A stretch of 64,000 nt of DNA. Origin: Thermoanaerobaculia bacterium. Its GTDB lineage: Bacteria; Acidobacteriota; Thermoanaerobaculia; UBA5066. A program made the position numbers and the translations under genes. The notes under the pieces were generated by a model. The model was not told the DNA's origin and searched no databases. It worked only from the letters and a program-made list of their open reading frames with translations. This document shows, piece after piece, positions 2,773 through 63,806 of the stretch. Location of the stretch: positions 2,688,001-2,752,000 of the forward strand of contig CAVRAY010000001.1 of assembly GCA_963719225.1 (NCBI GenBank), read 5' to 3'. The first letter of the stretch is position 1; the number at the start of each line of letters is the position of its first letter.

Positions 2773-3255
2773 TTACCTCGCCGCGCCACCCTCGACGATT
2801 TCGACGAGGTGGCGGACCTTCTGGACCTGGCCCCGAACCGTCGGGGTGTCGGGGCGGACGACCTCGTGGCGGATGCGCCGAAGGCCGAGCCCGAAGAGAG
2901 TGTGTTTCTGGTCGACGGGCGCGCAGATGCCCGATTTGATCTGGCGAATACGGATTTGCTTCGGAGCGGCCGCTGCGGCGGCCGCAGGAGCCGCCGCCTT
3001 CGCGGCGGCCCGGGGTTGCTTAGAAGGGGAAGATGTCAGCGCCGCAGCACTCTCACCGGTCGCGCTTTCTGGGGCCGCCGCGTCGACCTGCGAAGGCACA
3101 TTCACCTTCGAAGAAACTTCGGACGATTCGGCCTTCTTCGCCGCAGCAGTCTTCAGCTCCGCCGGGCCGGCCTGCGCGGGGGTACTCACTTTCGAAGAAG
3201 TCTTCTTCTTCTCGGTCTTCCTCTCGATTCTGTCGGTCTTTTCCGTCTCGCTCAT
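2773..3255 (-). CDS. rpmD: 50S ribosomal protein L30 with ~95-aa Ala/Lys/Ser-rich N-terminal extension
   Basis: C-terminal L30 domain ([10 protein letters not shown]...[35 protein letters not shown]). The start ATG overlaps the rpsE stop (ATGA). Confidence 0.9.
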
Positions 3256-3911
3256 CCGATCTTCTCCGTGGTCTCGGGCACTGCCACCGGCACCGCCGCG
3301 ACGGGGGCAGCCGTCGCCGGCTCCGCCTTCGCTTCGCCGTTGCCGACGCCGCGCGCTTTCGCGATCGTCGCTTCGAGCTGCAGGTGCTGGAGCGCGTCGA
3401 ACGTGGCCTTGACGACGTTGTGCGGGTTCGTCGTGCCGAGCGACTTCGTCAGGATGTTCTGGACGCCCGCCGATTCGAGCACCGCGCGGACCGCTCCGCC
3501 CGCGATGACGCCGGTGCCTTCGGACGCCGGCTTCAGCATCACGCGGCCCGCGCCGTAGTGGCCGACGATGGGGTGTGGAATCGTCTTGCCTTTCAGCGGG
3601 ACGCTGATCATCTTCTTCTTGGCCATCTCGATGCCCTTCTTGATGGCCATCGGGACTTCCTTCGCCTTTCCGGCGCCGTAGCCGACGCGGCCGTGTCCGT
3701 CGCCCACGACGACGAGGGCCGAGAACGAGAAGTTCTTGCCGCCCTTGACGACCTTCGTCACGCGGTTGATGTGCACGACGTGGTCGATGAGGTCGGCTCC
3801 GGCACGGCCTTCACCGAGGGCGCCGGCCGGGCGGGGCGGCGGTCCGCCGGGGCGGTTGCCGCCCGGACGGTTCGGGCGCGGGGGACGATTGGTCGGCGCG
3901 TTGCTGCTCAA
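3252..3911 (-). CDS. rpsE: 30S ribosomal protein S5
   Basis: [25 protein letters not shown] and [15 protein letters not shown]. Probable TTG start overlapping the rplR stop (TTGA). Confidence 0.95.
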
Positions 3912-4276
3912 AACTTCAACCCCTTCTCGCGAGCGGCTTCCGCGAGCGCTTTCACGTTGCCGTGGTAGAGATGGCCTCCGCGATCGAACACGACGGCCGA
4001 GATTCCCTTCGCCTGGGCGCGCTCGGCGATGAGCGATCCGACCTTGACGGCGGCCGTCTTGTTGGCTGCGCTCTTCGCCTCGCCGCGCACGCCCGCCTCG
4101 CGCGACGTCGCGTGCGCGAGCGTCGTGCCTTTTGCGTCGTCGATCAGCTGAACGGAAATCCAGCGGAGGGTCCTGGAGACCGCGAGGCGCGGCCGTTCGG
4201 CCGTGCCTTTCACTTTCCGCCGGATCCGCGCGTGGATGCGATCCTTCGCCTCGACCCGGGCTTGTGCCTTGTCCAT
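3908..4276 (-). CDS. rplR: 50S ribosomal protein L18
   Basis: RPRLAVSRT and [23 protein letters not shown]. spc operon position. Confidence 0.97.
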
Positions 4277-4288
4277 GGTGCTCTTTCC

Positions 4289-4846
4289 TTACTTGCCCGT
4301 GGCCTTGCCGGCCTTCTTCTTGAGGACCTCGCCCACGAAGCGGAAACCCTTCAGCTTGTAGGGGTCGGGGGGGCGAATGCCGCGGATCTCGGTCGCCGTC
4401 TGGCCGACCTTCTGCTTGTCGACGCCCGTGACGATGATGTGCGTGATGTCCTTGGCCTTCGCGTCCGGCGCGACCTCGACCTTGATGCCCTCGGGCATCG
4501 GGAACTTCACGACGTGCGAGAAGCCGACGCTGAACACGACGGCCTGCCCCTTGACCTCGGCTTTGAAGCCGATGCCGACGAGGTCGATCTCGCGCTTGAA
4601 GCCCTGGGTGACGCCCAGGACCGCGTTCTGGAGGAGCGCGCGGTTCAGGCCGTGGAGCGCCTTGTCTTTCTTCTCTTCGCCCGCCCGCGCGAGGCGGACG
4701 ATCCCGTCTTTCTTCTCGACCGTGATGCCCGCGAGGATGGGTGTCACGACGGCGCCCTTCGGCCCCTTCACCGTGACCGAAAGATCCGCGACCTGGACGT
4801 CGACGCCCTTGGGAATGGGAATGGGCTTGAGACCGACTCGAGACAT
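4289..4846 (-). CDS. rplF: 50S ribosomal protein L6
   Basis: [26 protein letters not shown]. Confidence 0.97.
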
Positions 4847-4854
4847 GTCGCTCC

Positions 4855-5253
4855 TCACCACACCGTGCAGACGACCTCGCCGCCCACGCCGCGCTTCTTC
4901 GCGTCGTGGCCGGTGAGGAGACCCTGCGAGGTGGACACGATGGCGACGCCGAGTCCGCCGAGAACCTCGGGAAGCTCGTTCTTGCCGGCATAGAGGCGCC
5001 GTCCCGGCTTGCTCGAGCGCGCGAGGCCGTGAATGACGGGATTCCCAATATCGTCGTACTTGAGGTAGAGGCGCAGGAGGCTGCCGCCCCGGTCGTCCAT
5101 CACCTTGAAGTTCTTGATGTAGCCCTCGTCCTTGAGGATCCGGGCGAGCTCGACCTTGAAGCGCGACGACGGGATGTCGGCCTTCTCGTGCCGGGCCGAC
5201 AGCGCGTTCCTCAGGCGCGCGAGGAGATCGGAGACGGGATCGCTGATGTTCAT
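4855..5253 (-). CDS. rpsH: 30S ribosomal protein S8
   Basis: [42 protein letters not shown]. Confidence 0.98.
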
Positions 5254-5263
5254 CGTCTCCTCC

Positions 5264-5449
5264 TCACCACGACGCCTTCGTCACCCCGGGCACGTAGCCC
5301 GCGAGCGCGAGGTTCCGGAAGCAGATGCGGCACAGGCCGAACTTCCGCATGAACGCCCGCGGACGGCCGCAGCGCCTGCAGCGGTTTCGCTTGCGGATCG
5401 CGTATTTCAGTTTCGAGTTCGCCTTGATGATCGCGGCGCGACGAGCCAT
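5264..5449 (-). CDS. rpsN: 30S ribosomal protein S14, type Z (zinc-binding, 61 aa)
   Basis: MARRA...[24 protein letters not shown]...PGVTKASW, with two CxxC motifs. Confidence 0.97.
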
Positions 5450-5468
5450 GCCTGCGCTCCTTGACTTG

Positions 5469-6014
5469 CTATCGGCCGAACGGCATGCCGAGCTCTCGCA
5501 AGAGAACCCGGGCCCGGTCATCCGAGCCTGCCGTCGTGACGATGGTGACGTTGAGACCCTTGGACTTGTCGATCTTCGTGGGGTCGATTTCGGGAAAGAT
5601 GAGATGGTCCTTGACGCCGAGCGTGTAGTTGCCGCGCCCGTCGAACGCGCGCGTCGGCACGCCCCGGAAGTCGCGCACGCGCGGGAGCGCGACGTTCATG
5701 AGGCGGTCGAGGAACTCGTACATCCTGTCGCCCCGCAACGTCACGCGGCAGCCGATCGGCATGCCGGCGCGCAGCTTGAACGTGGCGATGGATTTCTTCG
5801 CACGCGTGACGACGGCACGCTGGCCGGCGATCTTCGTGAGCTCCTCGGCAGCCGCGTCGACGAGCTTCGCGTTCGTGATGGCCTCGCCGATCCCCATGTT
5901 GAGAACGACCTTTTCCAGCCTGGGAACGGCCATCGGGTTCGCGATCCCGAACTCCTTCTTGAGGACCGGGATGACGTCCTTCTTGTATCTGTCCTGGAGA
6001 CGTGCGGTTGTCAT
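5469..6014 (-). CDS. rplE: 50S ribosomal protein L5
   Basis: [44 protein letters not shown] at 6014. Confidence 0.98.
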
Positions 6015-6021
6015 GGCGTCC

Positions 6022-6387
6022 TCACTCGGCCGCCGGCCGGAGGGTGCCGATGGTGGCCCCGCTCTTCTTGGCGTAACGCACCCATTCGCCGCCCTCGGCA
6101 CGGATTCCCACGCGCGTCGGCTTGCCGCCCTCGGGGTCGACGAGCATGAGGTTCGACAGGGCGATCGGCGCCTCGCGCTCGAGGATGCCGCCCTTGATGT
6201 TCTTCTGGGGATTCGCGCGCGTGGCCCGCTTGATCTTGTTGACGCCTTCGACGACGGCGCGGCCCTTCTCGGGCAGCACCTTGAGGATCTTCCCGCGCGC
6301 TCCGCGGTCCTTCCCCGTCAGGACGATGACGACGTCGTCCTTGCGGATCCGGCGCTTCCCGGTGTACGTCGGCTGCCTTTTCTTCAT
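6022..6387 (-). CDS. rplX: 50S ribosomal protein L24
   Basis: KOW motif [13 protein letters not shown] and [11 protein letters not shown]. Confidence 0.97.
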
Positions 6388-6388
6388 G

Positions 6389-6763
6389 TCAGATGACTTC
6401 CGGAGCCAGCGAGATGATCTTCATGAACTTCTTCTCGCGGAGCTCCCTGGCGACCGGCCCGAACACGCGAGTCCCGATCGGCTCCCTTTCGTTGTTGACG
6501 AGGACGGCGGCGTTCGTGTCGAACCTGATGTAGCTGCCGTCGCGGCGACGCTGCTCGCGCACCGTGCGCACGATGACGGCCTTGACGACCTTGCCCTTCT
6601 TGACCGGGTCGGGCGCGTCCGGGTTCGACTCCCTCACCGAGCAGGTGATGACGTCGCCGATGCGGCCGAAATCCCCGGTCGAGCCGCCCTGCACCTTGAT
6701 GCACGCCAGACGTCGGGCACCGGAGTTGTCGGCGACCTCGAGGATCGTCCCCATCTGGATCAC
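6389..6763 (-). CDS. rplN: 50S ribosomal protein L14
   Basis: [42 protein letters not shown]. Confidence 0.98.
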
Positions 6764-7170
6764 GATTCCCTCCCCGCCGGCTCGGACGTGCCCTTCGCGG
6801 GCGCCTTCTTCTCGGGCGCGCTCTTCGCCGAGCTTCTCGTCTCGCTGCCCGGGACCTCGGCCGTGTCGGAGACGAGGGCGCGGCCCTTCGTCACGATCGC
6901 GATCACGCGCCAGCGTTTTTTGGCCGACAGAGGCCGGGTTTCCTCGATCTGCACGGTGTCGCCGGGCTGCGCCTTGAGGACGCGGTCGTCCGCCAGGAAC
7001 CGCGCCGACTTCCGCTGGTAACGGCCGTAGCGCGTGTGCTTGACGAGGCGAGACACCTCGACGACCACGGTCTTCTCCATCTTGTTCGAGACGACGGTCC
7101 CGACCTTCCGGCTGCGCCGCGGCTCGACGGCCGTCGCGATTTCAGGGGTGCTGCTCATGGGCGTGCTCAC
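6760..7170 (-). CDS. rpsQ: 30S ribosomal protein S17 with C-terminal extension
   Basis: [16 protein letters not shown] and [13 protein letters not shown], followed by a ~40-aa tail. Start is GTG 7170 or ATG 7158. Confidence 0.95.
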
Positions 7171-7186
7171 TGCTTCCTGTTACGAA

Positions 7187-7693
7187 CTACTTCTTCTTGC
7201 TTTTCTTGCTGGGAGCGGACTTGGCCTTCGGAGGAGCGGCCGTCTTCCCCTTAGGTCCTGAAGATTTCTTAGAAGGGGCCTGAGCCTTCGCAGCCGCGCC
7301 GCCCGTCTTCGAGCCCGTCGCCGCAGCCGTCTTCTTCTTGTGGGCGGCCGCGCGCTTCTTCGCGCCTTTGCCCGTTGCCGCGGCGTGGGGCTTCGGTTTC
7401 GCCGTCCCCGCCGCGCTCTTCTCATTCGCAGAAATCTTCTCTTCGGTCCCCTCCGAAACCCCAGTCTCATGAGTCTCGGCGGCCGCAGCGGCCGCCGCCT
7501 CGGCCGCGCTCATGTGCTGCGCGGTCTTCAGGCGGGCGATGTCCTTGCGGAGCTCCTTGATCTTCATGGGATTCTCGAGCTGGCCCGTAGCCTTCTGGAG
7601 GCGGAGCGTGAAGAGGGACTGCGCCCACTCCTTCGCCTTGGCGGCCTTTTCCTCGGCGGACCAGTCGAGCATCGCCTGGATCTTCATCGTCAT
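7187..7693 (-). CDS. rpmC: 50S ribosomal protein L29 with ~105-aa Lys/Ala-rich C-terminal tail
   Basis: [31 protein letters not shown]. Lies between rplP and rpsQ. Confidence 0.93.
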
Positions 7694-7697
7694 CTCG

Positions 7698-8123
7698 TCA
7701 CCTCACCGCCGCGAGGAAGGAGCGCGAGACGAATCGGGTCTTGATCCCGATCTTGTCCGACGCGAGGCCGAAGGCCTCGCGCGCGGTCTTCTCGTCGACG
7801 CCTTCCATCTCGAACAGGATGCGGGCGGGCTTGATGACGCACACCCAGCCTTCGGGCGCGCCCTTGCCCTTGCCCATGCGCGTCTCGGCGGGTTTCTTCG
7901 TGATCGGCTTGTCCGGAAACACGCGGATCCAGAGCTTTCCGCCGCGCTTCACGTGGCGCTGCACCGCGACGCGGCCCGCCTCGATCTGGCGCGCCGTGAG
8001 CCAGCCCGGCTCGAGCGCCTGCAGCCCGTACTCCCCGTTCGAGAGAGACGAGCCCTTGCGCGCCGTGCCGCGCATGCGGCCGCGCTGCTGCTTTCTGTAC
8101 TTGACCTTCGACGGCATCAACAT
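7698..8123 (-). CDS. rplP: 50S ribosomal protein L16
   Basis: [16 protein letters not shown] and [22 protein letters not shown]. Confidence 0.98.
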
Positions 8124-8135
8124 GAGCGTTGTTCC

Positions 8136-8783
8136 TTACGCGACTTTCCGGCGGCTCTTGGCGCGGTGGAGGTCGCCCTTGTAGATCCAGCACTTGACGC
8201 CGATCTTTCCGTACGTCGTGCGCGCCTCGGCGAAGCCGTAGTCGATGTCGGCCTTGAGCGTGTGAAGAGGAAGGCGACCTTCCTGGTACCACTCCGAGCG
8301 CGCGATCTCGGCTCCGTTGAGGCGCCCCCCGCAGCGGATCTTGATGCCCTGCGCGCCGAACCGGAACGCGGACTCCATGCCCTTCTTCATCGCCCGGCGG
8401 AAGGCGACGCGGCGCTCGAGCTGCATCGCGATGGACTCGGCGACGAGCTGGGCGTCCGTTTCGGGGCGCTGGATCTCGACGATGTTCACGTGGATGTCCT
8501 TCCCGAGCCGCTGCTGCAGCCGGTCGCGGAGCTGGTCCACGGACGCGCCCTTCTTCCCGATGATGACGCCGGGGCGGGCCGTCATGATGTTGATCTTCAG
8601 CTTGTTGCCGCGCTCGATCTCCACCTCGGAGACCGCCGCGTTGACGAGATCCCGCTTGAGCTCGTCGCGGAGCTTCAGGTCGTCGTGAAGGAACTTGAGG
8701 TAGTCCTTTTCCGCGTACCAGCGCGAATGCCAGGTCCGGTTGTAGCCGATACGAAAACCGTAGGGGTGGACTTTCTGACCCAT
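8136..8783 (-). CDS. rpsC: 30S ribosomal protein S3
   Basis: [35 protein letters not shown]. Confidence 0.98.
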
Positions 8784-8794
8784 CGTTTGCTCCG

Positions 8795-9451
8795 TTATCC
8801 GGCCGATTCCGGCTTCGTCGGCTTCTTGGACTTCTTCTCGTGTTTTTCGTGCTTTTCCTGATTTGCTTCGGCTGCTTCGACCCGCTCGGCGCGCTTCTCG
8901 TCGGACGCCACTTTCTTGTGCGCTCGCTCGACCGCCCGGTCTTCCCGGCCGGGGCGATGCGCGGCGGCGGAAACGGCGGCCGCGACGCGGCCCTGGCGCT
9001 TCTTGACGAGCGGCTTCGGTGCTTCGGCCTTGAGACCCGCTTCCTTCCGGGCGGCCGCGTCGTCCGAGAGCGTGACCGTCACGTGGCAGAAAGGACGCGG
9101 GATGAGCCACATGCGGCCCTGCGGGCCGCTCATGAAGCGCGGACGGGCGAAGCGCTTCTTGTAGTTGGAGATCGCGCGGATCATCGCGTTGCGCTGGAGC
9201 GGCTTGCGTCCGGCTTCGTCGACGTGGATCTTCGAGACGACGAGCGCGTCCGCGTCCACGCCCGACTCGTTCTGCCGGGCGTTCGCGATCGCGGACTCCA
9301 CGAGCTTCAGGAGGTCTGACGAGCAGCCCTTGCGCGTCGTGCGCAGCGTCGCGAGGGCTTTCCCGACGGGTTTCATCCGGATGAGGTCGGCGACGAGCCG
9401 CACCTTCTGGGCGGAGCCCCTGTAATGGCGGAGACGGGCGACTGCTTGCAT
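8795..9451 (-). CDS. rplV: 50S ribosomal protein L22 with beta-hairpin insertion and long C-terminal tail
   Basis: [25 protein letters not shown]...[10 protein letters not shown]...HVTVTL. Lies between rpsS and rpsC, with a GAGGAG RBS. Confidence 0.93.
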
Positions 9452-9462
9452 CGCTCTCCTCC

Positions 9463-9816
9463 TCAGGCCTTCGCCGCCGGCGCGGCCACGGGAGCGCCCG
9501 GCGCGCCCGGTGCGCCAGGAACGCCCGGTGCGCCAGGCGTCGCACCCTTCTCGACCTTCTTGCCCGAGTGGCCCTTGAAGATGCGCGTGGGCGAGAACTC
9601 GCCGAGCTTGTGCCCGACCATGTTCTCGGAGATGTAGACGGGGATGAACTTCTTGCCGTTGTGGACGGCGAGCGTGTGTCCGACCATGTCGGGCAGGATC
9701 GTCGAGCGGCGCGACCACGTCTTCAGGACGCGCTTCTCTCCGGCCGCGTTCATCGCGGTGATCTTCTCGAGGAGCGGCGTGTCGACGAACGGCCCCTTTT
9801 TCGTGGAACGAGACAT
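9463..9816 (-). CDS. rpsS: 30S ribosomal protein S19 with Pro-Gly-Ala tail
   Basis: [33 protein letters not shown]. Confidence 0.98.
9494..9538. repeat. Five tandem 9-bp units (RCGCCMGGH) encoding the PGA/PGV tail of S19
   Basis: gcgcccggc gcgcccggt gcgccagga acgcccggt gcgccaggc, read directly. Confidence 0.85.
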
Positions 9817-9832
9817 GTGTTTCCTCGAATCC

Positions 9833-10654: not shown

Positions 10655-10660
10655 GGCGCG

Positions 10661-11664: not shown

Positions 11665-11672
11665 CGCCCCCT

Positions 11673-12329: not shown

Positions 12330-12368
12330 CGTGTGCTTCCTCGTCCCGCCTTCGTGTGACGGGACGGT

Positions 12369-12686
<318 letters not shown>

Positions 12687-12701
12687 TTGAATCTCGTTTC
12701 C

Positions 12702-13904
<1,203 letters not shown>

Positions 13905-13928
13905 CGTCTCCTCCGTTGCTCGGGATTC

Positions 13929-16198: not shown

Positions 16199-16678
<480 letters not shown>

Positions 16679-20948: not shown

Positions 20949-21377
20949 TCAGCGACGTCCGGACGAGACAGCCGGCAGGATCTCGAACCCCATCTGCCGG
21001 AAATGCCGATCGGTCGTCAGAGCCTGCTTGAGCCGGAGCTCCTGCATGACGACGAGGCTCGTGCAGTCCGTGAAGGAGTAGTTCTTGTCGCGATGCCGGA
21101 AGAAGACGCGCCGCGCCTTCTCCGCCCGCGTAACTCCGATCCACTCCCACCGTACACGGGAGCTCCCTTCGACCTGAGTCCACCAGTTCTGGGCAGCTGA
21201 GAGGCTCAGCCTCATCCGGATCAGAGTCAGAGTCTCATCCAGCACGTAATCCGTTGTGACGAGGATATTGCCCTTCTCGAGTGCCTCATCGCGCGCTGCA
21301 CACGCTCTGCCGTTCACGGGGTCGGAACCGTCTGCGCAGGCCATCCAACCGGCCGTGTCGACGAAGATCCCCTTCAT
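20949..21377 (-). CDS. vapC: PIN-domain toxin (VapC family)
   Basis: IFVDTAGW, YVLDETLT, YSFTDCTS, ALTTDRHF acidic PIN motifs. ATGA overlap with the antitoxin. Confidence 0.9.
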   Translation of the reverse strand: MKGIFVDTAGWMACADGSDPVNGRACAARDEALEKGNILVTTDYVLDETLTLIRMRLSLSAAQNWWTQVEGSSRVRWEWIGVTRAEKARRVFFRHRDKNYSFTDCTSLVVMQELRLKQALTTDRHFRQMGFEILPAVSSGRR

Positions 21378-21622
21378 CGCCCGTACAGCACTTCGTCGTG
21401 CCGGTCCGCCGCTCCGCCGTCCACGGAGCGACCCACGGCCTTCGCCCGATAAAGGGTGTCTGCCTCGAGCTCCGGCAACGACGCGGTCATTTCCTCCGCG
21501 GGAACGATCTGGAACGCCGCGCGGCTGCGGTAAATCACGGTGAAACGCGCCCCCTTGCGAACGCGCTCGACCACTCTCGGCAGGGACGCTCGGAGCTGTT
21601 TCGCGTTGATGGTGATGTTCAT
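21374..21622 (-). CDS. Phd/YefM-family antitoxin
   Basis: TINAKQLRASLPRVVERVRKGARFTVIYRSR is a Phd-like N-terminus. Directly upstream of the PIN toxin, with GAGGAG RBS. Confidence 0.8.
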   Translation of the reverse strand: MNITINAKQLRASLPRVVERVRKGARFTVIYRSRAAFQIVPAEEMTASLPELEADTLYRAKAVGRSVDGGAADRHDEVLYGR

Positions 21623-21640
21623 GGCGGCTCCTCACGACAA

Positions 21641-21680
21641 GTTCATTTTGAGTTGAACACGTTTCCCGGAGGTGCGTCAA
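21641..21680 (-). promoter_or_regulatory. Putative TA promoter/operator
   Basis: TTGACG -35-like hexamer (21675-21680) and inverted repeat GTTCA-N8-TGAAC (21641-21658) just upstream of the antitoxin. Confidence 0.45.
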
Positions 21681-21712
21681 GTGGCGGCGCCACCCGGGCT
21701 CGTCCGCACGGA

Positions 21713-21946
21713 TCATCCAAGCCGCCTCACGAAGTCCCGAAGAAGCGAGACGATCCGCGGCAACCTGCGCCGAGCGGGCTCGACGTTCTCGTGGTCGAAC
21801 GGGCAATGGCGGCAGCCCGAGCCGCAGCAGGCGCCGCGGCGGAGCAGATACGCGGTCGTGAAGACCTCGTATCCCGTCTCCGGGTCGAGGTACGTGTCTT
21901 TCCCCTCGGCGATGGCCGCCGCGTGCAGCCGGTCGATCTCGTCCAC
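21713..21946 (-). CDS. DUF5522-like small Cys-rich protein
   Basis: YLDPETGYEVFTTAYLLRRGACCGSGCRHCPF motif. Confidence 0.8.
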   Translation of the reverse strand: MDEIDRLHAAAIAEGKDTYLDPETGYEVFTTAYLLRRGACCGSGCRHCPFDHENVEPARRRLPRIVSLLRDFVRRLG

Positions 21947-21969
21947 GGACGGATTCTGATGAAATCAGA

Positions 21970-22254
21970 ATGCTTTGCGCGAACGTCTTCCGGAGCCGCG
22001 TCCATCGGCGACTCATGAAGCCGGAGGCGGCGCGCGATGCATTCGGGATCCTGCGCGGCCTGCCCCTGAGGGTGGTCGCGTCTGGAGAGCTCTCGTCCGC
22101 GGCGCTGGACCTCGCCCTCGACGCCGGAATCTCCGTCTACGACTCCGTCTATGCGTCCCTCGCCCGCATGCTCGCCGTTCCGCTCGTCACGGCGGACGGC
22201 CGCCTGATCGCCACGCTCCGGAAGGCCGGCGTCGCGGCCCTGCCTCTCGTGTAG
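21970..22254 (+). pseudogene. N-terminally truncated PIN-domain (VapC-like) gene
   Basis: Has CANVF...SVYDSVYASLA...LVTADGRL but lacks the first PIN motif and an antitoxin. Confidence 0.65.
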
Positions 22255-22293: not shown

Positions 22294-22319
22294 GGAATTT
22301 GCTTGGAAGGTAAGAGGGG

Positions 22320-49522: not shown

Positions 49523-49570
49523 AGAGAAGAAAAGAAAAAACATTTTGTTTCGGAAATAGAAGAGGAAGAG

Positions 49571-49669
49571 GGATTTTCTTAGAAGGTGAATGAGCTGGCT
49601 GCCCGCCGCGCAATCGACGCTCAACGGCGCCGCCCGCGCCGCGCCCTATTCACTTTCAAAGAAATCTTC
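49571..49669. repeat. Imperfect ~21-bp inverted repeat pair around a GC-rich core
   Basis: +49571 GGATTTTCTTAGAAGGTGAATG versus the reverse complement of 49647-49669, GAAGATTTCTTTGAAAGTGAATA. Confidence 0.75.
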
Positions 49670-50341: not shown

Positions 50342-50347
50342 ATTCCT

Positions 50348-51469: not shown

Positions 51470-51473
51470 GCGC

Positions 51474-54175: not shown

Positions 54176-54186
54176 GGCGCTGGATT

Positions 54187-55800: not shown

Positions 55801-55812
55801 GCAACCTTGATT

Positions 55813-55910
55813 GTCATAGAAAGAAGAGAAGACCGGGGGTTTCTTAGAAAGAAAAGAGAATTGAAGATTTTCTTAGAAAGGAAAGAAGACCAGGAACCTC
55901 TGAGAATGAA
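55813..55910. repeat. AT/purine-rich degenerate tandem array, ~28-29 bp period
   Basis: TAGAAAG at 55817, 55845 and 55874, and GAGAATG at 55902. Units at 55817-55834 and 55874-55891 match 16/18. Confidence 0.6.
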
Positions 55911-57607
55911 AATCGGGGGATCGGAGCGGGGTGCCCAGTGGCGCGGTCCGTCACGACTGCGACGACGTCCGGATCGTTCTCGCAGAGCGGCTCCCGGCCC
56001 GTCGCCGCGCGGCACACCTCGATTTTCGGGTAGAGCTCGCTCCGGTATCCCTCGACGACCACGACGTCACACGAGCCAAGCCCATATTCCCCTTCTAAGA
56101 AAACGGACAGAGCCGGCCGCAGGTTGGCTCCAGCCGCGCCCGTGCTCGGGTCCGAAGCAGAAATCTCCGGTGGCCTCCGGTGCACCGCGCTTCGCCGCCC
56201 CGCGACGAGGATCGCGGGCTCGGCGCCCGCCGCCTTGTGGCGCTGCGAGTCCTTGCCTTCGACGTCGGTCTCGTATTCGTGGTCCGTGTGCTTGAGCGAG
56301 CCGACCCTCAAGCCGTCCTTCACGAGCGCCTCGATGAGCTTCACGGCGACGGTCGTCTTGCCCGATTCGTGGGCGCCGGTGACGAGGAGGACCACCGGGG
56401 ATGAAGATCTCTTGGAAGGGTAAAGGAGGCCGCGTTCGCGCGAGGAAGCGAAACGTGCGATGTCGGCCGGAAAACTCTCGATCCAGGAGTCCAGGCTCGC
56501 GCCTTCATCCACGAGCTGCCGGTATTTCGCGGTGCCGGTCAGGAGGTCGATCGCGGGGACGTCGTCGCGGTACTCGTACGCTTCCGTCCGCCAGCGAAAC
56601 CGGTCCGGGTCCAGGTCGTGAAGGGCTTTCAGCAAGCGCAGGTACGTCTCGTACGGTCGGAACGCGCCGCGGTCCGTCACGTGGACCTGCACGCCGCCGC
56701 AGGTTTTTCCCGCGTGCTTCTGGAACGTTGGCTTGAAGACGTGCGGCCGAAAGACGGCGCCGTGGAGTCCGAGGGCGTTCGCCGCGTCGGCCGCTTCCTC
56801 CGCGTCGAGCCACGGCGCGCCGACGAGCTCGAAGGGCCGCGTCGTGCCGCGCCCCTCCGAGAGATTCGCCCCCTCGACGAGGCAACCGCCGGGATAGACG
56901 AGGGCGGTCTCTCGCGTCGGCATGTTCGGGGACGGGAGGACCCAGGCGGGCGTCTCGGCGACTTCGCGGCGCGAGGGCGCGCGGCCGCCCTTGCGCATCG
57001 GCACGACGGTGAGGTCGCAGCCGAGGCGATACTCGGTGTTCAAGAAGCGCGCGATCTCGCCGGGCGTCATCCCGTGGCGGACCGGCACCGGATACAGGCC
57101 GACGAAGGACAGCAGCCTCTCCTCGGGCAGGTTGCCCTCGAGGATCTCGCCGCCGAGCGGATTCGGCCGGTCGAGAACGACGACGGGAATTCCGCGCGCG
57201 GCGCAGGCCTTCATCATCAGCGCCGTCGTCCACACGAACGTGTAGTAACGGCTGCCCACGTCGGGAAGGTCGGAAACCACGGCGTCGAGATCGCGCAGGT
57301 GCTCCGGCTTCGGAGAGAGCTCTTCGAACGTCGAGCCGTAGAGGGAAACGATCGGCACGCTGCAGGACGCGCAGCCCGCCACCGCTTCCATGTCCTGCGC
57401 CGCACCCCAGAACCCGTGCTCGGGCCCGAAGAGGACGCGCACGTCGTACCCCGCGTCGCGAAGCGCGCGCTCGGCCGGGACGAATGCCGACGTCACCGAG
57501 GCCGCGTTCGCGAGAAGGCCGATCCTCTTGCCGCGAAGAACCTCGCTTGCGCTCTCGCCTTCCGTTAACAGCATGTCGAGACCGGTCTTCACGCGCGAAG
57601 GTTTCAC
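55844..57607 (-). CDS. Fusion of NamZ/DUF1343 exo-beta-N-acetylmuramidase and MobB
   Basis: N-part: LFGPEHG, SLYG, DVGSRYYTF, LDRPNP, RHGMTPGE, PSPNMP, SEGRGT. C-part: GAHESGKTT, LKH, GKDS.RH..AGA, VVEGY, PKIEV. Confidence 0.85.
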   Translation of the reverse strand: MKPSRVKTGLDMLLTEGESASEVLRGKRIGLLANAASVTSAFVPAERALRDAGYDVRVLFGPEHGFWGAAQDMEAVAGCASCSVPIVSLYGSTFEELSPKPEHLRDLDAVVSDLPDVGSRYYTFVWTTALMMKACAARGIPVVVLDRPNPLGGEILEGNLPEERLLSFVGLYPVPVRHGMTPGEIARFLNTEYRLGCDLTVVPMRKGGRAPSRREVAETPAWVLPSPNMPTRETALVYPGGCLVEGANLSEGRGTTRPFELVGAPWLDAEEAADAANALGLHGAVFRPHVFKPTFQKHAGKTCGGVQVHVTDRGAFRPYETYLRLLKALHDLDPDRFRWRTEAYEYRDDVPAIDLLTGTAKYRQLVDEGASLDSWIESFPADIARFASSRERGLLYPSKRSSSPVVLLVTGAHESGKTTVAVKLIEALVKDGLRVGSLKHTDHEYETDVEGKDSQRHKAAGAEPAILVAGRRSAVHRRPPEISASDPSTGAAGANLRPALSVFLEGEYGLGSCDVVVVEGYRSELYPKIEVCRAATGREPLCENDPDVVAVVTDRATGHPAPIPRFSFSEVPGLLSFLRKSSILFSF

Positions 57608-57638
57608 GCGATCGAGTCTAACCGCCGCGGGCGCCTTG

Positions 57639-57669
57639 AAAAGGAAACGGCGGGCCGGGTGGCCCGCCG
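57639..57669 (-). terminator. Rho-independent terminator after the collagen-like gene
   Basis: CGGCGGGCC-ACCC-GGCCCGCCG followed by TTTCCTTTT on the minus strand. Confidence 0.75.
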
Positions 57670-57693
57670 CTCCGTTCGAAGGATAGAGAGAGA

Positions 57694-59363
57694 TCAGGGA
57701 ACAGCGTACTTGAGGGAGATGCCGATCGAGTTCACCGCGAAGTTCGGATTCTTGTTGAAGAGGATCGAGAGCGTGTCACCGTCCAAGAACGTTATGGTGG
57801 ACGAGAGCTCGCTGCACACGCGGCCCGTGCCGCTTATCGTGCAGGTGAGCCCGGTGCTCACGCCGTTCTTCCGAATCGTCACCGTCGCGGTTTTGCCCAA
57901 CCCGGGGGCCGGACTGATCGCAAAACGGAGAGCGGTCGCGGTGCCGGCCGGCATCGGAAGCTGAACGTCCGTCTCGGCCGACGCGGCCGACGCGCCCCAC
58001 GGACCGAAGAAAGTACTGTCGGTCACGTTGTTGACGACCGTCACGCCGATCACGGCGCCGCCGCCGGTCGCACCGGTTGCGCCCGTCGGTCCCTGAGGCC
58101 CAGTCGCCCCGGTCAAACCGATCGGACCTTGCGGTCCCGTCGCGCCTGTCGCACCCGTTGCGCCGGTGGCACCGGTCGAGCCAGTGGGCCCGCCATTGCC
58201 GATCGGACCCTGCGGTCCCGTCGCGCCCGTGGCGCCCGTCGCCCCGGCCGGACCGACGACCGAGACGCCCGAACCCGGCCACCCGCCGGAGGCCTTCGGG
58301 CCGTAGAAGGAATTCGTCGACGTGTCGACGTAGAAGTCTCCGTCCACACCCACTCCGGCGCCGGGAGCTCCAATGCCGTTCAGGAGGGTTTTTCCGTCCT
58401 GACCGTTGGTTCCGTTCGAGCCGGCGGGACCCTGGGAACCGGTCGCACCCGTGGCACCGGTCGCGCCGGTGTTACCGATCGGACCCTGCGGTCCTGTCGC
58501 ACCCGTGGCACCTGTCAGGCCGATCGGACCCTGCGGTCCTGTCGCGCCCGCCGATCCGGCAGGGCCAGTCGGCCCGGCCGGTCCCGTGGCACCGACCGGA
58601 CCCTGAGGACCGGCAGGGCCGTTGGTCCCTGCTGGGCCGGCCGGACCCGCCGGAACGGACGTCGCGATCGTGAGCGAACCTGCCCCGGCCGTGACCGTCA
58701 CGTTTGCGCCCGCATTGAGAGTGAGCGCGCCCGTGAGTGTGTTGACCGACGTCACCACGCTCGGTCCGTAGTAGCCGTTCACGTCCACGACGATGTCCGC
58801 CCCGCTCACGCCGAACGCGATCGAAATCGCGCCGCCCGCGCCCAGCGGCACGACCGCGGCGTTCGCGATCGTCTGTCCCCCGACGAAGTTCAGCGTCGAC
58901 ACCAAGGGAGTGCAGCACCCGAGGGCCACGCCAACAGGTGGCCCGGTCCGAGCGTGTTCGTCGCCGTGAGGTTGGAGGAGACGGCTACGGCACCCGAGGG
59001 AATGCCGCACTGCCCCGTGATGGGGATATCGCGCACGACGGCGGCAATGACGGAAGGCGGGCCGAATGCACCCGTGAATCCGTTGCCCCGCGTATCGGCT
59101 ACGCGACAAGGCGTGATTGCGACGAACGGGGCGGGCGCCGATTGCGACGGGAGCGCGCTGACGTCGAGCGCGTGTCGCGTGCTCTTCGAGTCGGCGGCGG
59201 ACGTCGAGTCGGAAGCCGCCGTCGCCTGCCAGTAGGGCGGAGCGGACCAGTTTTCGATCTGGTCCGATTCAGCGCGAACTGGAGTTGCCATAGCGCACGT
59301 TGCAAGGATCGCCTAGCCTCGGGGAATCGAGGCAAAAGAAATGTCGCTTTTGCGACGCTGCAA
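57694..59363 (-). pseudogene. Collagen-like surface protein gene with an in-frame TAG and a frameshift
   Basis: The N-terminal domain ([13 protein letters not shown]...[13 protein letters not shown]) continues as LVSTLNF...ANAAVVPL...VDVNGYY in another frame at ~58905. TAG at 59313-59315 lies within a signal-peptide-like stretch. Confidence 0.75.
58063..58650 (-). repeat. Gly-X-Y collagen triplet repeats ([12 protein letters not shown]), split by a ~45-aa non-collagen module
   Basis: Translation of ORF 57694..59109. Confidence 0.9.
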
Positions 59364-59481
59364 TCGCGATTCCGCCGATCCTTCAAGGCGCCGTGACACA
59401 CTGCGGCGAGACGTTGATGTGTCATCCGTTTTCCGCACCCGCTCTGCGCACAGGAATCGGGCGGCCTCGCGGCGGGCGCCT

Positions 59482-60375
59482 TCAGGCCGAGAGGGTCTTC
59501 GTCTCCGCTCCGCGGTAATAGAGAGCGAGAATGGCGTCTCGACTTTCGCCGCGTTTCGCACGCGCGATCGCACCGGCCTGGCACATTCCGGCGCCATGGC
59601 CCGTGCCGCGTCCCGACAAGAGATATGCCGGCCGCGATTCCTCGAGAGCGAAAGCCGTCGAGCGCACGGAGTCCCAGCCCCAGAGCTCCGACGCGGCCTT
59701 GCGAAACTCGAATCCGCGTACGACACGAGAGGCTCCGCCCGGCGCCGCGAAACGCACCATCGAGACGCGCCCGCTCGCATCGTGGCCGTACACCTCCAGA
59801 AACCGCGCGTCACCGAAGCCGAGTGAGGACGAAAGAGTCGAAAGGGCGGGGCGCGGAATCGTGTAGGACCAGGCCGCGCCCGGCGCTCCCACGCAGGCGT
59901 CGTCCTCGACGGACTCGAGGTCGGGGATCTCCTCGTCGTCCCACACGTCCCTCGGGCGCGCCGTCCGGCCGCCGCAAACGGCATGAAAAGGCGCGGCGAT
60001 GACGCGGCCCTTCTGAGTCAGGACGACACCTGCCGTGGCGGCCGCCGCCCGCCGCGAATCTTCCGTGGCCGCAGAGAGCCCCTGAAAGACCTGGCAATGC
60101 GTGCCGTCGCACAGATCCGCGCCGTTTTCGAGATGGCGCTCTTCGCGCGCGAGCGCGTACGACCGCGCCGCGACGGCCTGGGCTTCGAGCGCCGCCGGGG
60201 GCGCGCGGCCGATCTCCCTCGGCACTACGGCCGCCACGTATTCCTCGAGATCGACTTCCTCGACGGCGCCCGTCTTCACGCGAAGAATCTTCCGCGTCCG
60301 TGGGGCGGCCGAAGCCGCGGCCCGAAACGTCGCGCCGAGCGCGAGGAGAGAGGCGAGCAGGAACCGCCTGGTCAC
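59482..60375 (-). CDS. SpoIID/LytB-domain lytic transglycosylase
   Basis: LEEYVAAVVPRE, ALEAQAVAARSY, LCDGTHCQVF, GHGAGMCQAGA, ILALYY. GTG start at 60375 with a signal peptide. Confidence 0.9.
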   Translation of the reverse strand: MTRRFLLASLLALGATFRAAASAAPRTRKILRVKTGAVEEVDLEEYVAAVVPREIGRAPPAALEAQAVAARSYALAREERHLENGADLCDGTHCQVFQGLSAATEDSRRAAAATAGVVLTQKGRVIAAPFHAVCGGRTARPRDVWDDEEIPDLESVEDDACVGAPGAAWSYTIPRPALSTLSSSLGFGDARFLEVYGHDASGRVSMVRFAAPGGASRVVRGFEFRKAASELWGWDSVRSTAFALEESRPAYLLSGRGTGHGAGMCQAGAIARAKRGESRDAILALYYRGAETKTLSA

Positions 60376-60409
60376 GGGGGTGAATTGTAGAGGTCGGAAC
60401 GGCTGAGGG

Positions 60410-60910
60410 TCAGCCGGAGCTCGGATGGGCGTCTCCCGCTTCGCCTCGAAGCGTGGCGATCGCATGCGGAAGCACGGAGGCCACGGCCTCGAGACACTCC
60501 ACGGCGCCGCGTGGAGAGCCCGGGAGGTTCACGATGAGCGTGCGCCCGCACACGGCCGCGACCTGCCGCGACAGGATCGCCGTGGGGACGGCCCTCCGAC
60601 TCGCATCCCGCATCGCCTCCGCGAGGCCGGGAACGTCGTAATCGAGGATGTCCCGCGTCGCCTGGGGCGTCACGTCGCGCGGAGAGAGGCCCGTGCCGCC
60701 CGTCGTGAGCACGAGTTCGGCGGCGCCGGTGTCGGCGAGTCGCTTGAGGTTCCACGCGATGTCCTCGCGCTCGTCGGGCAGGATCGTCCGCTCCACGACG
60801 ACGGCGCCGGGCAGCAGACGCAGCACTCCCTCGGCTACGGCGGGCCCGCTCTTGTCGGCGCGCTCGCCGTGGTACGACCGATCCGAGATCGTCAGGATCG
60901 CGACGCGCAC
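60410..60910 (-). CDS. Molybdopterin adenylyltransferase MogA/MoaB family
   Basis: ILTISDR, DKSG, TTGGTGLSPRDVTP, NLPGSP. Confidence 0.92.
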   Translation of the reverse strand: MRVAILTISDRSYHGERADKSGPAVAEGVLRLLPGAVVVERTILPDEREDIAWNLKRLADTGAAELVLTTGGTGLSPRDVTPQATRDILDYDVPGLAEAMRDASRRAVPTAILSRQVAAVCGRTLIVNLPGSPRGAVECLEAVASVLPHAIATLRGEAGDAHPSSG

Positions 60911-60917
60911 GGCGCCA

Positions 60918-61931
60918 TCAGCCGCCGATCTCGCTCATGTTGCGGGCATGAAGGGGCAGCGTCGCCTTGTTCATCCCGACGAACATGGGGTGCCGCTCTT
61001 CCTTGATCGTGGCCGCGCGGATCACGAGCGCGCGCAGCTCTTCGTCGCTCGCTCCCGCGCGCATCGGCTTCAGGAGGTCCACGTCCGCGTGTCCGAAGAG
61101 ACAGCCCTTGAGGAAGCCGTCCTGCGTGAGGCGCATGCGGTTGCAGGTGTCGCAGAACCTGTCCGAGACCGGCGTGATGAAACCGATCGAGCCCGTATGC
61201 GCGCCGGCGGGCGACGTGACCGAATACTCGTCTGCGGGTCCGGCCACGAGCGTCTTCGAGATCGGCGTGAGGACGTAGCCGGCGGCGGCGAGGCGGTCCC
61301 ACACCTCCTCCCACCCCACCCAGTCGGATTCCTTCCAGTCGTTGTCGCCGAACGGCATGAACTCGATGAAGCGCACGCCGAGCTTCTTGTCCTTCGTCAT
61401 CGCCGCGAGCGGAAGGATCTGATCGTCGTTCAGGCCGCGGATGACGACCGCGTTGATCTTGATGGAGTCGAACGGGAGCGAAAGGGCGAGGGCGATCGAA
61501 TCGACGACCGGCTTGAAGTGGTCGCGCCGCGTCATTTTTCGGAAATGCTCGGCTTCGGCCGCGTCCAGAGAGACGTTCACCTTCGTGAGGCCCGCCGCGA
61601 GAAGGTCGTGCGCCATCCTCGGAAAGAGGACGCCGTTCGTCGACATCGCGATCCCGCCCGGAAATCCGATTTCGGCCAGGTCGCGCACGATGTCCACGAG
61701 ATCGGGACGCGTCGTGGGCTCCCCGCCCGTGATGCGGATCTTCTCGACGCCGAAATCCGCGAGGAGGCGCGCCGTACGGCGGATCTCGTCGCGCGAGAGG
61801 AGGTGCGGCAGCGGCCGGAACTTCTGGTCCTCCGGCATGCAGTAGATGCAGCGAAGGTTGCACCGGTCGGTGACGGAGATGCGAACGTAGGTGATGCGGC
61901 GTCCGTGCCCGTCGATGAGCGCCCGCTCCAT
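60918..61931 (-). CDS. moaA: GTP 3',8-cyclase (radical SAM)
   Basis: RISVTDRCNLRCIYCM, TGGEP, IEFMP, FCDTCNR..C, C-terminal IGG. Confidence 0.97.
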   Translation of the reverse strand: MERALIDGHGRRITYVRISVTDRCNLRCIYCMPEDQKFRPLPHLLSRDEIRRTARLLADFGVEKIRITGGEPTTRPDLVDIVRDLAEIGFPGGIAMSTNGVLFPRMAHDLLAAGLTKVNVSLDAAEAEHFRKMTRRDHFKPVVDSIALALSLPFDSIKINAVVIRGLNDDQILPLAAMTKDKKLGVRFIEFMPFGDNDWKESDWVGWEEVWDRLAAAGYVLTPISKTLVAGPADEYSVTSPAGAHTGSIGFITPVSDRFCDTCNRMRLTQDGFLKGCLFGHADVDLLKPMRAGASDEELRALVIRAATIKEERHPMFVGMNKATLPLHARNMSEIGG

Positions 61932-61957
61932 GCCGCCTCCCTGAGATCGAGTCTAGC

Positions 61958-62485
61958 TCAGCCGGTCTCTCCCCGCCGCCACCTTCCGCTCTTGCCGCCC
62001 GTTTTCTCGAGGAGGGCGATTTCGCGGATCTCGATGCCCTTGTCCGCCGCCTTGCACATGTCGTACAGCGCGAGCGCCGCGGCGGAGGCCGCGACGAGCG
62101 CTTCCATCTCGTATCCGGTCTTTCCGGTTCCCCTGACCTCGGTCGTGATCTCGACCGCCCACGCCCGACGGCGGGGCTCCAGGCGCACGGCGACCGAGTC
62201 GAACGCGAGCGGATGGCAGAGCGGGATCCACTCGGCCGTGCGCTTGGCCGCCTGGATCCCCGCGAGGCGCGCGACGGCGAGAGCGTCGCCCTTCCGGTTC
62301 ATGGCGGAATCGAGCGAGAGGAAGGCGGTGCTTCCGAGGGACACGAGGGCGCGGGCGCGAGCCGTGCGAACGGTCAGCCGCTTGGACGAGACGTCCACCA
62401 TGCGGGCGCGCCCCTCAGCGTCGAGGTGACTGAGCGGCCGTGCCAGACGGTCCGTCCGCCGGGACTTCGCTTTGGAGCGCTTCAT
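61958..62485 (-). CDS. moaC: Cyclic pyranopterin monophosphate synthase
   Basis: LSHLD, MVDVS, KGD, IPLCHPL, TGYEMEAL, YDMCKA, KTGGKSG. Confidence 0.96.
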   Translation of the reverse strand: MKRSKAKSRRTDRLARPLSHLDAEGRARMVDVSSKRLTVRTARARALVSLGSTAFLSLDSAMNRKGDALAVARLAGIQAAKRTAEWIPLCHPLAFDSVAVRLEPRRRAWAVEITTEVRGTGKTGYEMEALVAASAAALALYDMCKAADKGIEIREIALLEKTGGKSGRWRRGETG

Positions 62486-63047
62486 ATTCCTCCGGGGTGT
62501 TGACGTTGAAGAAACCGGACGGAGAGCCGCCCGCCATCGCAGCCGTGACTTCCTCCGGAATGAGGACCGCGTGAAACGAAAGGAGCGCGGCGACGAGGGA
62601 GTAATCGCCGGCCTCGAGACGTGCGCGGAGCGGCGCGAGCGCGGAGCGCCTCCAGACGGCGCACAGCGGCTGCGGCCGCCCGCCCGAAACCGGCACCACG
62701 GCGGGAGCGTGAATCGCCTCGGCGACGTCGAGCAGAGCCGCGAGAAAGGACTCCGGACAGCGCGGCACGTCCGCCGCGAGGACGAGGTTCGTCTCCTCCG
62801 GCGAGAACGCCAGCGCCGTCGCGACGCCGAACGCCGCGGCGACTTCGGGTGCCTCGTCGGTCACGTAGGGAAAGCGCGAGTCGGCGAAGGCTTCGGGGTC
62901 CTTCCCGACGAGTGCGACGCGCCCGCAGACGACTGCCAGCTTCTCCGCCTGATGGAGAGCCATCGGAACCCCCCGGTAAGGCAGGCGCGTCTTGTCGCGG
63001 CCCATCCGCGCCGAGCGACCGCCCACGAGGACAAACCCGTATGGCAT
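62415..63047 (-). CDS. mobA: Molybdenum cofactor guanylyltransferase
   Basis: LVGGRSARMGRDK, AADVP, QPLCAVW, FFNVNTPEE. Confidence 0.88.
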   Translation of the reverse strand: MPYGFVLVGGRSARMGRDKTRLPYRGVPMALHQAEKLAVVCGRVALVGKDPEAFADSRFPYVTDEAPEVAAAFGVATALAFSPEETNLVLAADVPRCPESFLAALLDVAEAIHAPAVVPVSGGRPQPLCAVWRRSALAPLRARLEAGDYSLVAALLSFHAVLIPEEVTAAMAGGSPSGFFNVNTPEEYEALQSEVPADGPSGTAAQSPRR

Positions 63048-63056
63048 CGTGGCGGG

Positions 63057-63806
63057 ATGCTACCGCCTTCGCCGGGGCCCGCTCGCATCGCGGTCATCGT
63101 TCCGCTGGCGGCCGGCGAAGCAGCGCCACCGGAGATTTTCTTCGAAAGGGTGCTGGGAGCGGAGAAACCCGTTTCACTCGTCGTGGCGGCGGATTCGGAG
63201 ATTTCTTCGAATGTCCGTGAGGCCTTCGCGCGGGCGGGCGCCCGTGTTCACATCTCTACGGCTCCACGCGGACAGCGCCTGCGCGAGGCCGCTCTCTTCA
63301 CCTTCAAAGATTCTTCTCCCTCGTCCTCGTCTTCCTCCTCCTCTTCACCAGAAACTTCTGTCTTCCTCTTTCTCCACGCCGACACACTTCTGCCTCAGCG
63401 CTGGGAGAAGGCCGTCCGCGACGCGATCGCTTCGGGCGCCGTCGGCGGCGCGTTCCGGCTGTCCTTCTCCGGCGGCGGAGCGCGCATGAGGTGGGTCGCG
63501 TTCTGGGCGAACGCCCGCAGCGCGTTCACACGCGTGCCGTACGGCGACCAGGCTCCCTTCGTACGGAATGACGTCTACGAGAGGCTCGGCGGCCATCCGC
63601 CCTGGCCGCTTCTCGACGACTGGGATTTCGCGAGGAGGCTCAGGAACGAGGGTCGGATAATGATCCTCGAGAACGCGGTCGAAACTTCGCCCCGGCGCTA
63701 TCTCGAGCGTGGCGTCGCCCGCACGATCTGGAAGAACTGGAAGACGCTTTGGCGTTTCCGGAGGGGCGCGACGCCGGAAGAGCTCGCGCGGGAGTACCGG
63801 AGGTAG
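63057..63806 (+). CDS. Family-2 glycosyltransferase (TIGR04283-like) with Ser-rich insertion
   Basis: FLHADT, GGAFRL, PYGDQ, TSPRR motifs. ATG at 63057; N-terminus is divergent. Confidence 0.75.
   Translation: MLPPSPGPARIAVIVPLAAGEAAPPEIFFERVLGAEKPVSLVVAADSEISSNVREAFARAGARVHISTAPRGQRLREAALFTFKDSSPSSSSSSSSSPETSVFLFLHADTLLPQRWEKAVRDAIASGAVGGAFRLSFSGGGARMRWVAFWANARSAFTRVPYGDQAPFVRNDVYERLGGHPPWPLLDDWDFARRLRNEGRIMILENAVETSPRRYLERGVARTIWKNWKTLWRFRRGATPEELAREYRR

Follow-up and report, generated by a model that had tools for sequence, protein, structure and literature searches.

The present analysis concerns a dispersed motif with the consensus RRRWTTTCTTNGAARGKGAA, which had been noticed in a 64-kb stretch of bacterial DNA, hereafter called the window (C1:2,688,001-2,752,000 of the source genome G000, which comprises 4.75 Mb in two contigs, C1 and C2, and is 97% complete with 6% estimated contamination). 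The motif proves to be genuine; it extends over the whole genome and is restricted to one lineage. The reading that we favor, with a probability of roughly 45%, is that it constitutes a one-way signal used in facing pairs, likely as the site of a lineage-specific chromosome-organising protein. An earlier note on the window had also considered an undescribed protein-binding signal. Its overall interpretation is partly borne out: the conserved entity is indeed DNA, but the motif is not absent from protein domains, and both the facing pairs and the gradient from origin to terminus had escaped notice.

The weight matrix used here was obtained by iteration and covers 23 positions, giving RRRW-T-TTCTTNGAA-RGKGAA. 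It matches G000 816 times at 18 bits or more, as compared to 106 times for the reversed matrix, and the working set consists of 852 sites of at least 17 bits with duplicates removed, so that the motif is not limited to the window. All 16 copies in the earlier list are present, with the same coordinates and strands, and score 20.7-36.4 bits; a weak 17th copy is located at 55902. The exact core TTCTTAGAA occurs in the window six times, at the places that had been given, with a zero-order expectation that we recompute as 0.05 (previously 0.04). Genome-wide it is found 273 times on both strands, while an order-3 Markov model predicts 3.7 and an order-5 model 78, the latter absorbing the motif itself. 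The pattern TTCTTNGAARG occurs 10 times in the window, compared to 0.17 ± 0.40 in 100 dinucleotide shuffles, none of which reached 10. A literature search, with supplements and most subscription papers outside its coverage, gave nothing on this motif.

The motif is polar, with the central T fixed in 90% of the sites, the next base variable (A in 48% and C in 34%), and the G-rich tail confined to one side. On the outer side, a purine tract of at least 15 nt accompanies 286 of the 852 sites, compared to ~1.5% of random positions; these tracts show no effect of fork direction (p 0.67) and a marginal one of gene strand (p 0.04). The mean density is one site per 5.6 kb, unevenly distributed, with gaps of 45-150 kb.

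The motif appears to work as a unit of two face-to-face copies. Among the combinations of sites within 400 bp, 337 are facing, 15 back-to-back, and 102 tandem, and the 491 clusters include 196 simple facing pairs, 54 pairs with one doubled arm, 3 back-to-back arrangements, and 212 lone sites, 67 of which have a weak partner on the facing side and 6 a weak partner behind. About a third of the sites are unpaired. The spacing has its onset at about 62-68 bp and its mode at 75-77 bp, with a tail to about 300 bp, and only 16 of 298 pairs are closer than 62 bp. The same spacing peak is seen for exact pairs in the relatives, and some orthologous pairs hold the ~75-bp spacing though their interiors no longer align. 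The interiors are likewise unrelated from one pair to another, as 254 pairs fall into 222 clusters, the largest of which is formed by kinase paralogues.

The distribution is lineage-specific, with abundance in one genus only and sparse occurrence in its sister genus. An exact 12-mer is present in 27-245 copies in all 28 other genomes of the genus and in 1-25 copies in all eight genomes of the sister genus (g11); a single copy was found among 26 genomes from eight further genera of the family, and none in 12 genomes representing two further families of the order. A looser 12-mer, scanned in 251 genomes of the class Thermoanaerobaculia, gives 141-394 matches in 14 genomes of the genus, 65 in G039, 7 in G040, and no more than 30 in any of the remaining 235, the genome with the highest count among them having a control of 23. 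This background means that the motif is not class-wide (the background rows include the unpublished genomes G019, G223, and G226, on which no claim rests). A scan for exact pairs in one genome per species returned 112 stretches, and the 80 listed among them all belong to Acidobacteriota or Thermoanaerobaculia metagenome-assembled genomes. A search for a variant motif in other genera revealed none prominent among the 8-mers in 360 kb of G067, G066, G031, and G055, where the matrix also finds 0 sites. The motif-poor relative G040, 1.8 of 4.2 Mb of which (43%) is covered here as the reference for the comparison of syntenic orthologues, has in this part 25 sites of at least 17 bits, as compared to 4 for the reversed matrix, and five facing pairs; its cores have drifted toward TTCTTCGAA, and the sites look as if they were in decay. 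In a genome of another family, G200, the looser 12-mer has 17 matches against 1 for the control, mostly TTTCTTGGAAGG, which is possibly a separate repeat.

It had been argued that DNA rather than peptide is conserved, and the behavior of the sites inside genes agrees with this. With our own gene caller (3566 genes), 621 of the 852 sites (73%) lie in called genes, and 461 of these are over 150 bp away from both gene ends. They are not tied to one fixed frame, all three frames being used with 313 sense and 308 antisense sites, and 418 of the 852 are on the leading strand in replication. Such a lack of preference for either transcription or replication strand is as expected of double-stranded recognition. 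Synonymous shuffling of codons removes most of the sites (570 gene-internal sites of at least 17 bits, compared to a mean of about 54 in 20 shuffles). The TTA codons that had been attributed to the motif are also recovered, since 64 of the 256 TTA codons in the called genes (25%) are within 8 bp of a site centre. Synonymous differences amount to 28/209 at the cores and 1467/4607 elsewhere, a contrast inflated by the choice of loci. Because a perfect motif was the criterion for picking the majority of these loci, the fairer figure is that of the unselected L29 orthologues, a single gene, with 8/70 at the cores and 133/612 elsewhere. Between the arms, synonymous divergence is not significantly raised in the 8 genes compared (p 0.31).

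The sites prefer permissive places, as had been proposed, but are not confined to them. Their density is 2.6-5.5 per 100 kb in genes with at least 75% orthologue identity to G040 and 21-37 at 45-75%, so that they shun the most conserved proteins, and they often adjoin low-complexity runs; many, however, lie in folded domains. Accessory genes, here those absent from G040, contain 6 sites where 13.6 are expected (p 0.018, a small sample from 43% of G040). Binning of site density by the GC content at third codon positions (GC3) was dropped, because the sites themselves lower GC3.

Comparison with syntenic G040 orthologues indicates that the motif is mostly written in place, since 124 of 182 sites are aligned gap-free, some of them inside kinase and enzyme domains, while 21 are partly so, 23 face a gap, and 14 are outside the alignment. 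At the gap-free sites the amino-acid identity to G040 is 259/620 (42%), as compared to 66% in the same genes. In a minority of cases the sites coincide with a gain of DNA: among 50 in-gene pairs, 23 show no net change in inter-arm length and 13 have at least 14 extra residues, and pair-bearing spacers are a median of 81 bp longer than in G040 (19 cases), compared to 0 for site-free spacers (484). In 14 pattern-matched kinase paralogues, a 93-bp pair spans the N-lobe in 11, the other three having the same arm-to-arm length, and Ser runs of variable length come after the second arm. About nine Ser/Thr kinase paralogues form a tandem array at C1:2,293,328-2,319,611 of G000, most with the 93-bp pair and a Ser run. 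For 80 loci taken from relatives, 65 of which can be aligned, G000 has the pair in 29, one site in 18, and none in 18 (hand count). The ends of the present or absent blocks differ from case to case, and among the alignments listed, in which the relatives are too diverged for a clean comparison, no consistent target-site duplication was seen by eye.

With respect to chromosome position, the origin-terminus map assumes that the contigs join as the skew suggests. In G000, dnaA is at C2:326 kb, with canonical parAB and one parS beside it, and dif is at C1:2,037,575, near the skew switch. From origin to terminus the density is 9.8, 9.5, 18.6, 21.6, and 30.2 sites per 100 kb, on both arms, and the gradient holds for intergenic sites (21 to 73) as well as for those in genes (7.6 to 23). 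On either side of dif, at less than 200 bp, there are two flanking pairs in all. Of the 26 dif loci in the genus, 22 have a site no farther than 700 bp away, as compared to 0 of 2 in the sister genus, the dif spacer being a permissive place. Moderate support for the gradient comes from G049, where 46 of 82 exact 14-mers (hand count) lie within the 41% of the contig around dif.

From the absence of strand bias, the independent arms, the fixed core, the single orientation, and the minimum distance, we infer two facing protein complexes on double-stranded DNA. The putative protein would bind the double-stranded motif and act on the DNA lying between a pair of facing sites by bending, wrapping, or bridging it, and the ~65-bp floor would correspond to the room that two such complexes need. 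Selection on the protein-DNA contact would keep the sites, and insertions between or outside the arms would be a by-product of reaching the spacing in permissive places. Chromosome organisation by facing sites would be densest toward the terminus, and it is the terminus gradient together with the pairs flanking dif that makes us prefer an architectural role over one in uptake. A more specific form of this proposal, which we put forward tentatively, is a sequence-programmed chromatin in a lineage of soil Acidobacteriota, in which several hundred facing pairs would position a wrapping or looping protein on units of 65-300 bp, graded toward the terminus. If this were true, the pairs would constitute a second code over the genes, with the strength to alter residues of kinases and tRNA synthetases and also to append new protein linkers and tails.

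A number of observations weigh against the proposed role in chromosome organisation. Only 303 of the 3566 genes bear sites, and site-free gaps reach 150 kb. The gradient is broad, without a sharp peak at dif, and GC3 itself dips slightly toward the terminus, from 0.899 to 0.876. G050 gives a mixed picture, with 20 sites in the 0.85 Mb that lead from dif to dnaA and 6 in the 0.9 Mb beyond dnaA, and since the sites remain dense right up to dnaA on one side, the density may follow gene neighbourhood; moreover, the gradients in G000, G049, and G050 are not independent, the sites being common by descent. The spacings have no 10-11-bp period (p 0.36), which short rigid DNA loops often show. The genus shows a ninefold range of copy number (27-245 exact 12-mers), and this variation, together with the apparent decay in G040, would also fit a dispensable or selfish process. 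Nor does any candidate for a reader protein co-vary with the motif. The ParB paralogue beside dif is family-wide (10 of 10 genera), and its recognition helix is unchanged in the motif-poor G040, G035, and G056. The DNA-contacting arms of IHF alpha/beta are unchanged between motif-rich and motif-free genomes (19 sequences), and the HU/IHF copy number of four genes, found in most of the genus, is also found in G040, G038, and G057. The search for the PF00808 histone gave 0/49, MatP (PF06303) was not found in G000 at its 97% completeness, and the 130 genes missing from the syntenic 43% of G040 contain no DNA-binding candidate evident by eye, without a family scan.

Some further observations were made on these regions and genes. 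The stretches C2:473,627-623,420 (150 kb) and C1:59,554-159,524 (100 kb) of G000 are free of sites and may be recently acquired DNA or contamination. On C2 of G050, only ~0.73 Mb separates dnaA (839 kb) from the dif-linked ParB paralogue (about 107 kb), which suggests a large rearrangement or misassembly. In G000, a second ParA-ParB pair is encoded on the minus strand at C1:2,037,865-2,039,524, ~280 bp from dif; the terminus-side ParB is present in all 10 genera of the family, with dif adjoining it in 28 of 30 loci, and the pair would constitute a terminus-linked partition system. Palindromic sites resembling dif also occur off the terminus, at C1:1,426,452, 3,645,717-3,645,722, and 3,663,774-3,663,779, the last two of which, 18 kb apart, are possibly the ends of a Xer-integrated element. 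A 22-copy repeat family with the core CTAACGATAT, spaced 0.5-2 kb, forms two arrays at C1 ~1.103-1.113 Mb and ~2.197-2.208 Mb and resembles integron attC sites. The IHF-like subunits encoded at C1:2,066,464-2,066,796 and 1,862,341-1,862,679 are longer by a single residue at the DNA-binding arm's tip than the canonical IHF pattern, in motif-rich and motif-free genomes alike.

The copies in the window and their host genes are as follows (positions are those of the window).

2773..3255, minus strand: host gene rpmD (L30), with an N-terminal extension of ~100 aa
3011..3033, plus strand: motif copy, centre 3021, 24.1 bits; 90 bp from its facing partner 3111; antisense (PSKQ), in the rpmD N-terminal extension
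3099..3121, minus strand: motif copy, centre 3111, 29.2 bits; sense in the rpmD extension (SSKV)
3183..3205, minus strand: motif copy, centre 3195, 28.9 bits; a second arm of the same direction, likewise sense within the rpmD extension
7187..7693, minus strand: host gene rpmC (L29), with an Ala/Lys-rich tail
7260..7282, plus strand: motif copy, centre 7270, 24.9 bits; 159 bp from its facing partner 7429; antisense (PSKKS), in the rpmC tail
7417..7439, minus strand: motif copy, centre 7429, 27.9 bits; sense in the rpmC tail (ISANE)
22294..22316, plus strand: lone motif copy, centre 22304, 25.4 bits; directly after the rpoC stop codon
42347..42369, plus strand: lone motif copy, centre 42357, 24.8 bits; covers the final codons of rdgB (minus strand) with its TAA stop, where coaE and rdgB meet
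49570..49592, plus strand: motif copy, centre 49580, 34.4 bits; 79 bp from its facing partner 49659; in the purB-rlpA interval, over a possible GTG start of rlpA
49647..49669, minus strand: motif copy, centre 49659, 34.6 bits; part of the rlpA leader (TFKEI) should GTG 49586 be the start
55835..55857, plus strand: motif copy, centre 55845, 30.6 bits; overlaps the namZ-mobB stop codon
55864..55886, plus strand: motif copy, centre 55874, 36.4 bits; antisense (FLRKS) at the C-terminal end of namZ-mobB; faces 56097
55892..55914, plus strand: weak extra copy, centre 55902, 16.5 bits; not in the earlier list
56085..56107, minus strand: motif copy, centre 56097, 25.9 bits; sense (FLEGE), within the region matched to the MobB domain
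56403..56425, plus strand: lone motif copy, centre 56413, 25.8 bits; antisense (PSKRS), in the linker that joins NamZ to MobB
63057-63806, plus strand: probable gene of a TIGR04283-like glycosyltransferase, host of copies 63142, 63207, and 63307
63132..63154, plus strand: motif copy, centre 63142, 24.8 bits; sense (IFFER) in the glycosyltransferase
63197..63219, plus strand: motif copy, centre 63207, 20.7 bits; sense (ISSNV); 100 bp from its facing partner 63307
63295..63317, minus strand: motif copy, centre 63307, 21.2 bits; antisense (TFKDS), with a Ser run on its outer side

The rpmD pair is present in five of nine congeners recovered and absent where the N-terminus is short. The rpmC pair is found in 10 of 11 genomes of the genus, at a spacing of 129-159 bp; the tail of L29 occurs without the motif in G040, G038, and G031 and hence predates it. 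The claim that no copy lies in a conserved core does not hold for site 56097, which falls at about residue 504 of a MobB match spanning residues 406-554. The coding status of 49580 and 49659 hinges on whether rlpA starts at GTG 49586 or at a later codon. As to the other contents of the window, NamZ (exo-beta-N-acetylmuramidase) is apparently fused in-frame to MobB (55844-57607, minus strand), open reading frames with PIN domains, likely toxin-antitoxin modules, are located at 20949-22254 between rpoC and the rpsL-tuf cluster, and Rfam gives no match in the window besides tRNAs.

We have also considered other explanations of the motif. One, the main rival, is that the sites are signals in horizontal exchange, similar to DNA uptake sequences (DUS) or to polar Chi-like protection signals, which accumulate by molecular drive in permissive parts of core genes; site-bearing fragments, or facing pairs shielding both ends, would then be taken up or integrated more often, the two-ended protection being our own suggestion. 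The footprint is DUS-like, with sites in permissive parts of core genes and fewer in accessory genes, as described in PMC2397512; there is one genus-level dialect, comEC is present, and a viral contig collection contains no exact pair, a weak negative because the hosts of the contigs are unknown. However, comEC is also present in 10 of 14 control genomes and so says little, and the low, uneven density with its long gaps and threefold terminus gradient speaks against it. Moreover, DUS act singly and their inverted pairs are close terminator hairpins (up to 21 nt in PMC2397512), unlike one-way facing sites with a ~65-bp floor, and we judge this explanation rather unlikely. Another possibility is an old, degenerate miniature element, of the miniature inverted-repeat transposable element (MITE), REPIN, or Rickettsia palindromic element (RPE) type, in which the pairs are inverted ends and the interiors have diverged. 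The whole pairs present or absent as blocks, the 18 of 65 alignable loci without a site in G000, the short L30 alleles, the extra residues in 13 of 50 in-gene pairs, and the longer pair-bearing spacers are all in its favor. Additionally, the interiors of the 66-92-bp pairs are slightly more alike than their shuffles (score 13.07, compared to 12.31 ± 0.12), leaving room for an ancient common origin of some short pairs, and the arms are marginally more alike within pairs before stratification (p 0.05; p 0.036 at the N position after frame stratification). Against this stand the 124 gap-free sites, the 23 pairs that enclose ordinary coding sequence of unchanged length, the 222 unrelated clusters, the variable block ends, and the third of sites that are unpaired, and a search of G000 for Y1_Tnp/RAYT gave 0 matches. 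The tiny mobile repeat generating coding sequence that the note had envisaged is thus partly supported, by the gain of DNA in a minority of cases; we consider a mobile element unlikely, and for most sites largely refuted.

The pairs could also be read as long-loop hairpins in RNA or single-stranded DNA, with the stem as the functional unit in processing, stability, or termination. The cores do pair together in the predicted fold of 122 of 168 segments, because both arms match one consensus, and the arm duplex energy is -18.5 kcal/mol, compared to -17.8 ± 0.2 kcal/mol in permuted pairs. However, position-wise co-variation between the arms is absent; a stricter set gives a weak excess (a gapped score at the level of 1 of 100 shuffles), which falls to p about 0.1 once paralogues are removed and frames stratified, with a remnant at the N position, and intergenic pairs have none (p 0.15, 0.34). 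Furthermore, inner arms and interiors show no excess of pairing or folding, and short loops, which favor hairpins, are avoided, making a hairpin quite improbable. The inverted geometry and the size range would also suit sites at which an invertase flips the interior (intragenic invertons), but 92 of 107 orthologous pair comparisons show the same orientation, with 14 ambiguous and 1 weakly inverted, and many interiors are conserved protein cores; invertons are thus very improbable. Finally, an artefact of Ser/Lys/Glu-rich composition, sequencing, or assembly, which the low-complexity runs beside the sites and the estimated contamination of G000 could suggest, is refuted by the tenfold excess over synonymous shuffles, the use of all frames and both strands, the presence of the motif in 28 of 28 further genomes of the genus from several assemblies, and the conservation of orthologous sites.

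Few bacterial DNA signals are powerful enough to rewrite coding sequence genome-wide, uptake sequences being the standard case, and the rule seen here, by which two polar sites have to lie face to face with a minimum separation, is found in none of the systems compared below. The measurable cost to proteins makes this a case for studying how a DNA constraint drives protein change and low-complexity linkers. The consensus, polarity, and spacing together provide an exact probe for the reader protein of the proposed chromosome-organising signal, and the rich genus, the intermediate G039, the decayed G040, and the motif-free genera form a natural control series.

It is useful to compare the motif with known systems. 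The near-palindromic core TTC-N3-GAA may resemble the half-sites of parS and the Noc-binding site (NBS); the canonical parS of G000 is a single, separate site near dnaA. REPINs are genus-restricted and occur as hundreds of inverted doublets. The motif shares this with the repetitive extragenic palindromic sequences (REP), bacterial interspersed mosaic elements (BIME), and REPINs, but 73% of its sites lie in called genes, the interiors are unrelated, and there is neither a hairpin signal nor, in G000, a RAYT. As in RPEs and coding MITEs, the repeats are located within unrelated protein-coding genes and sometimes add residues; RPEs are ~150-bp insertions encoding a conserved peptide (PMC10969869), while here only two arms of ~22 bp are common, any frame is used, and most sites replace residues in place. 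The matS sites of enterobacteria, which number 23 and are confined to Ter (PMC6907758), are likewise sequence-specific and biased to one chromosome region. The likeness is limited to this regional bias, as the ~850 polar sites occur in all quintiles with a broad threefold gradient and in facing pairs, and no MatP was found in G000. An evolutionary parallel is offered by the DUS of Neisseriaceae and the uptake signal sequences (USS) of Pasteurellaceae, which are also short, lineage-specific motifs with hundreds of copies in permissive parts of core genes and fewer in accessory genes. The neisserial DUS are conserved in such places, with their inverted pairs forming close terminator hairpins (PMC2397512). 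The present motif differs from them in its sequence, in the facing pairs with a ~65-bp floor, in the lower and uneven density, and in the terminus gradient; its evolution resembles that of a DNA uptake sequence, without the single-site action and the close hairpins.

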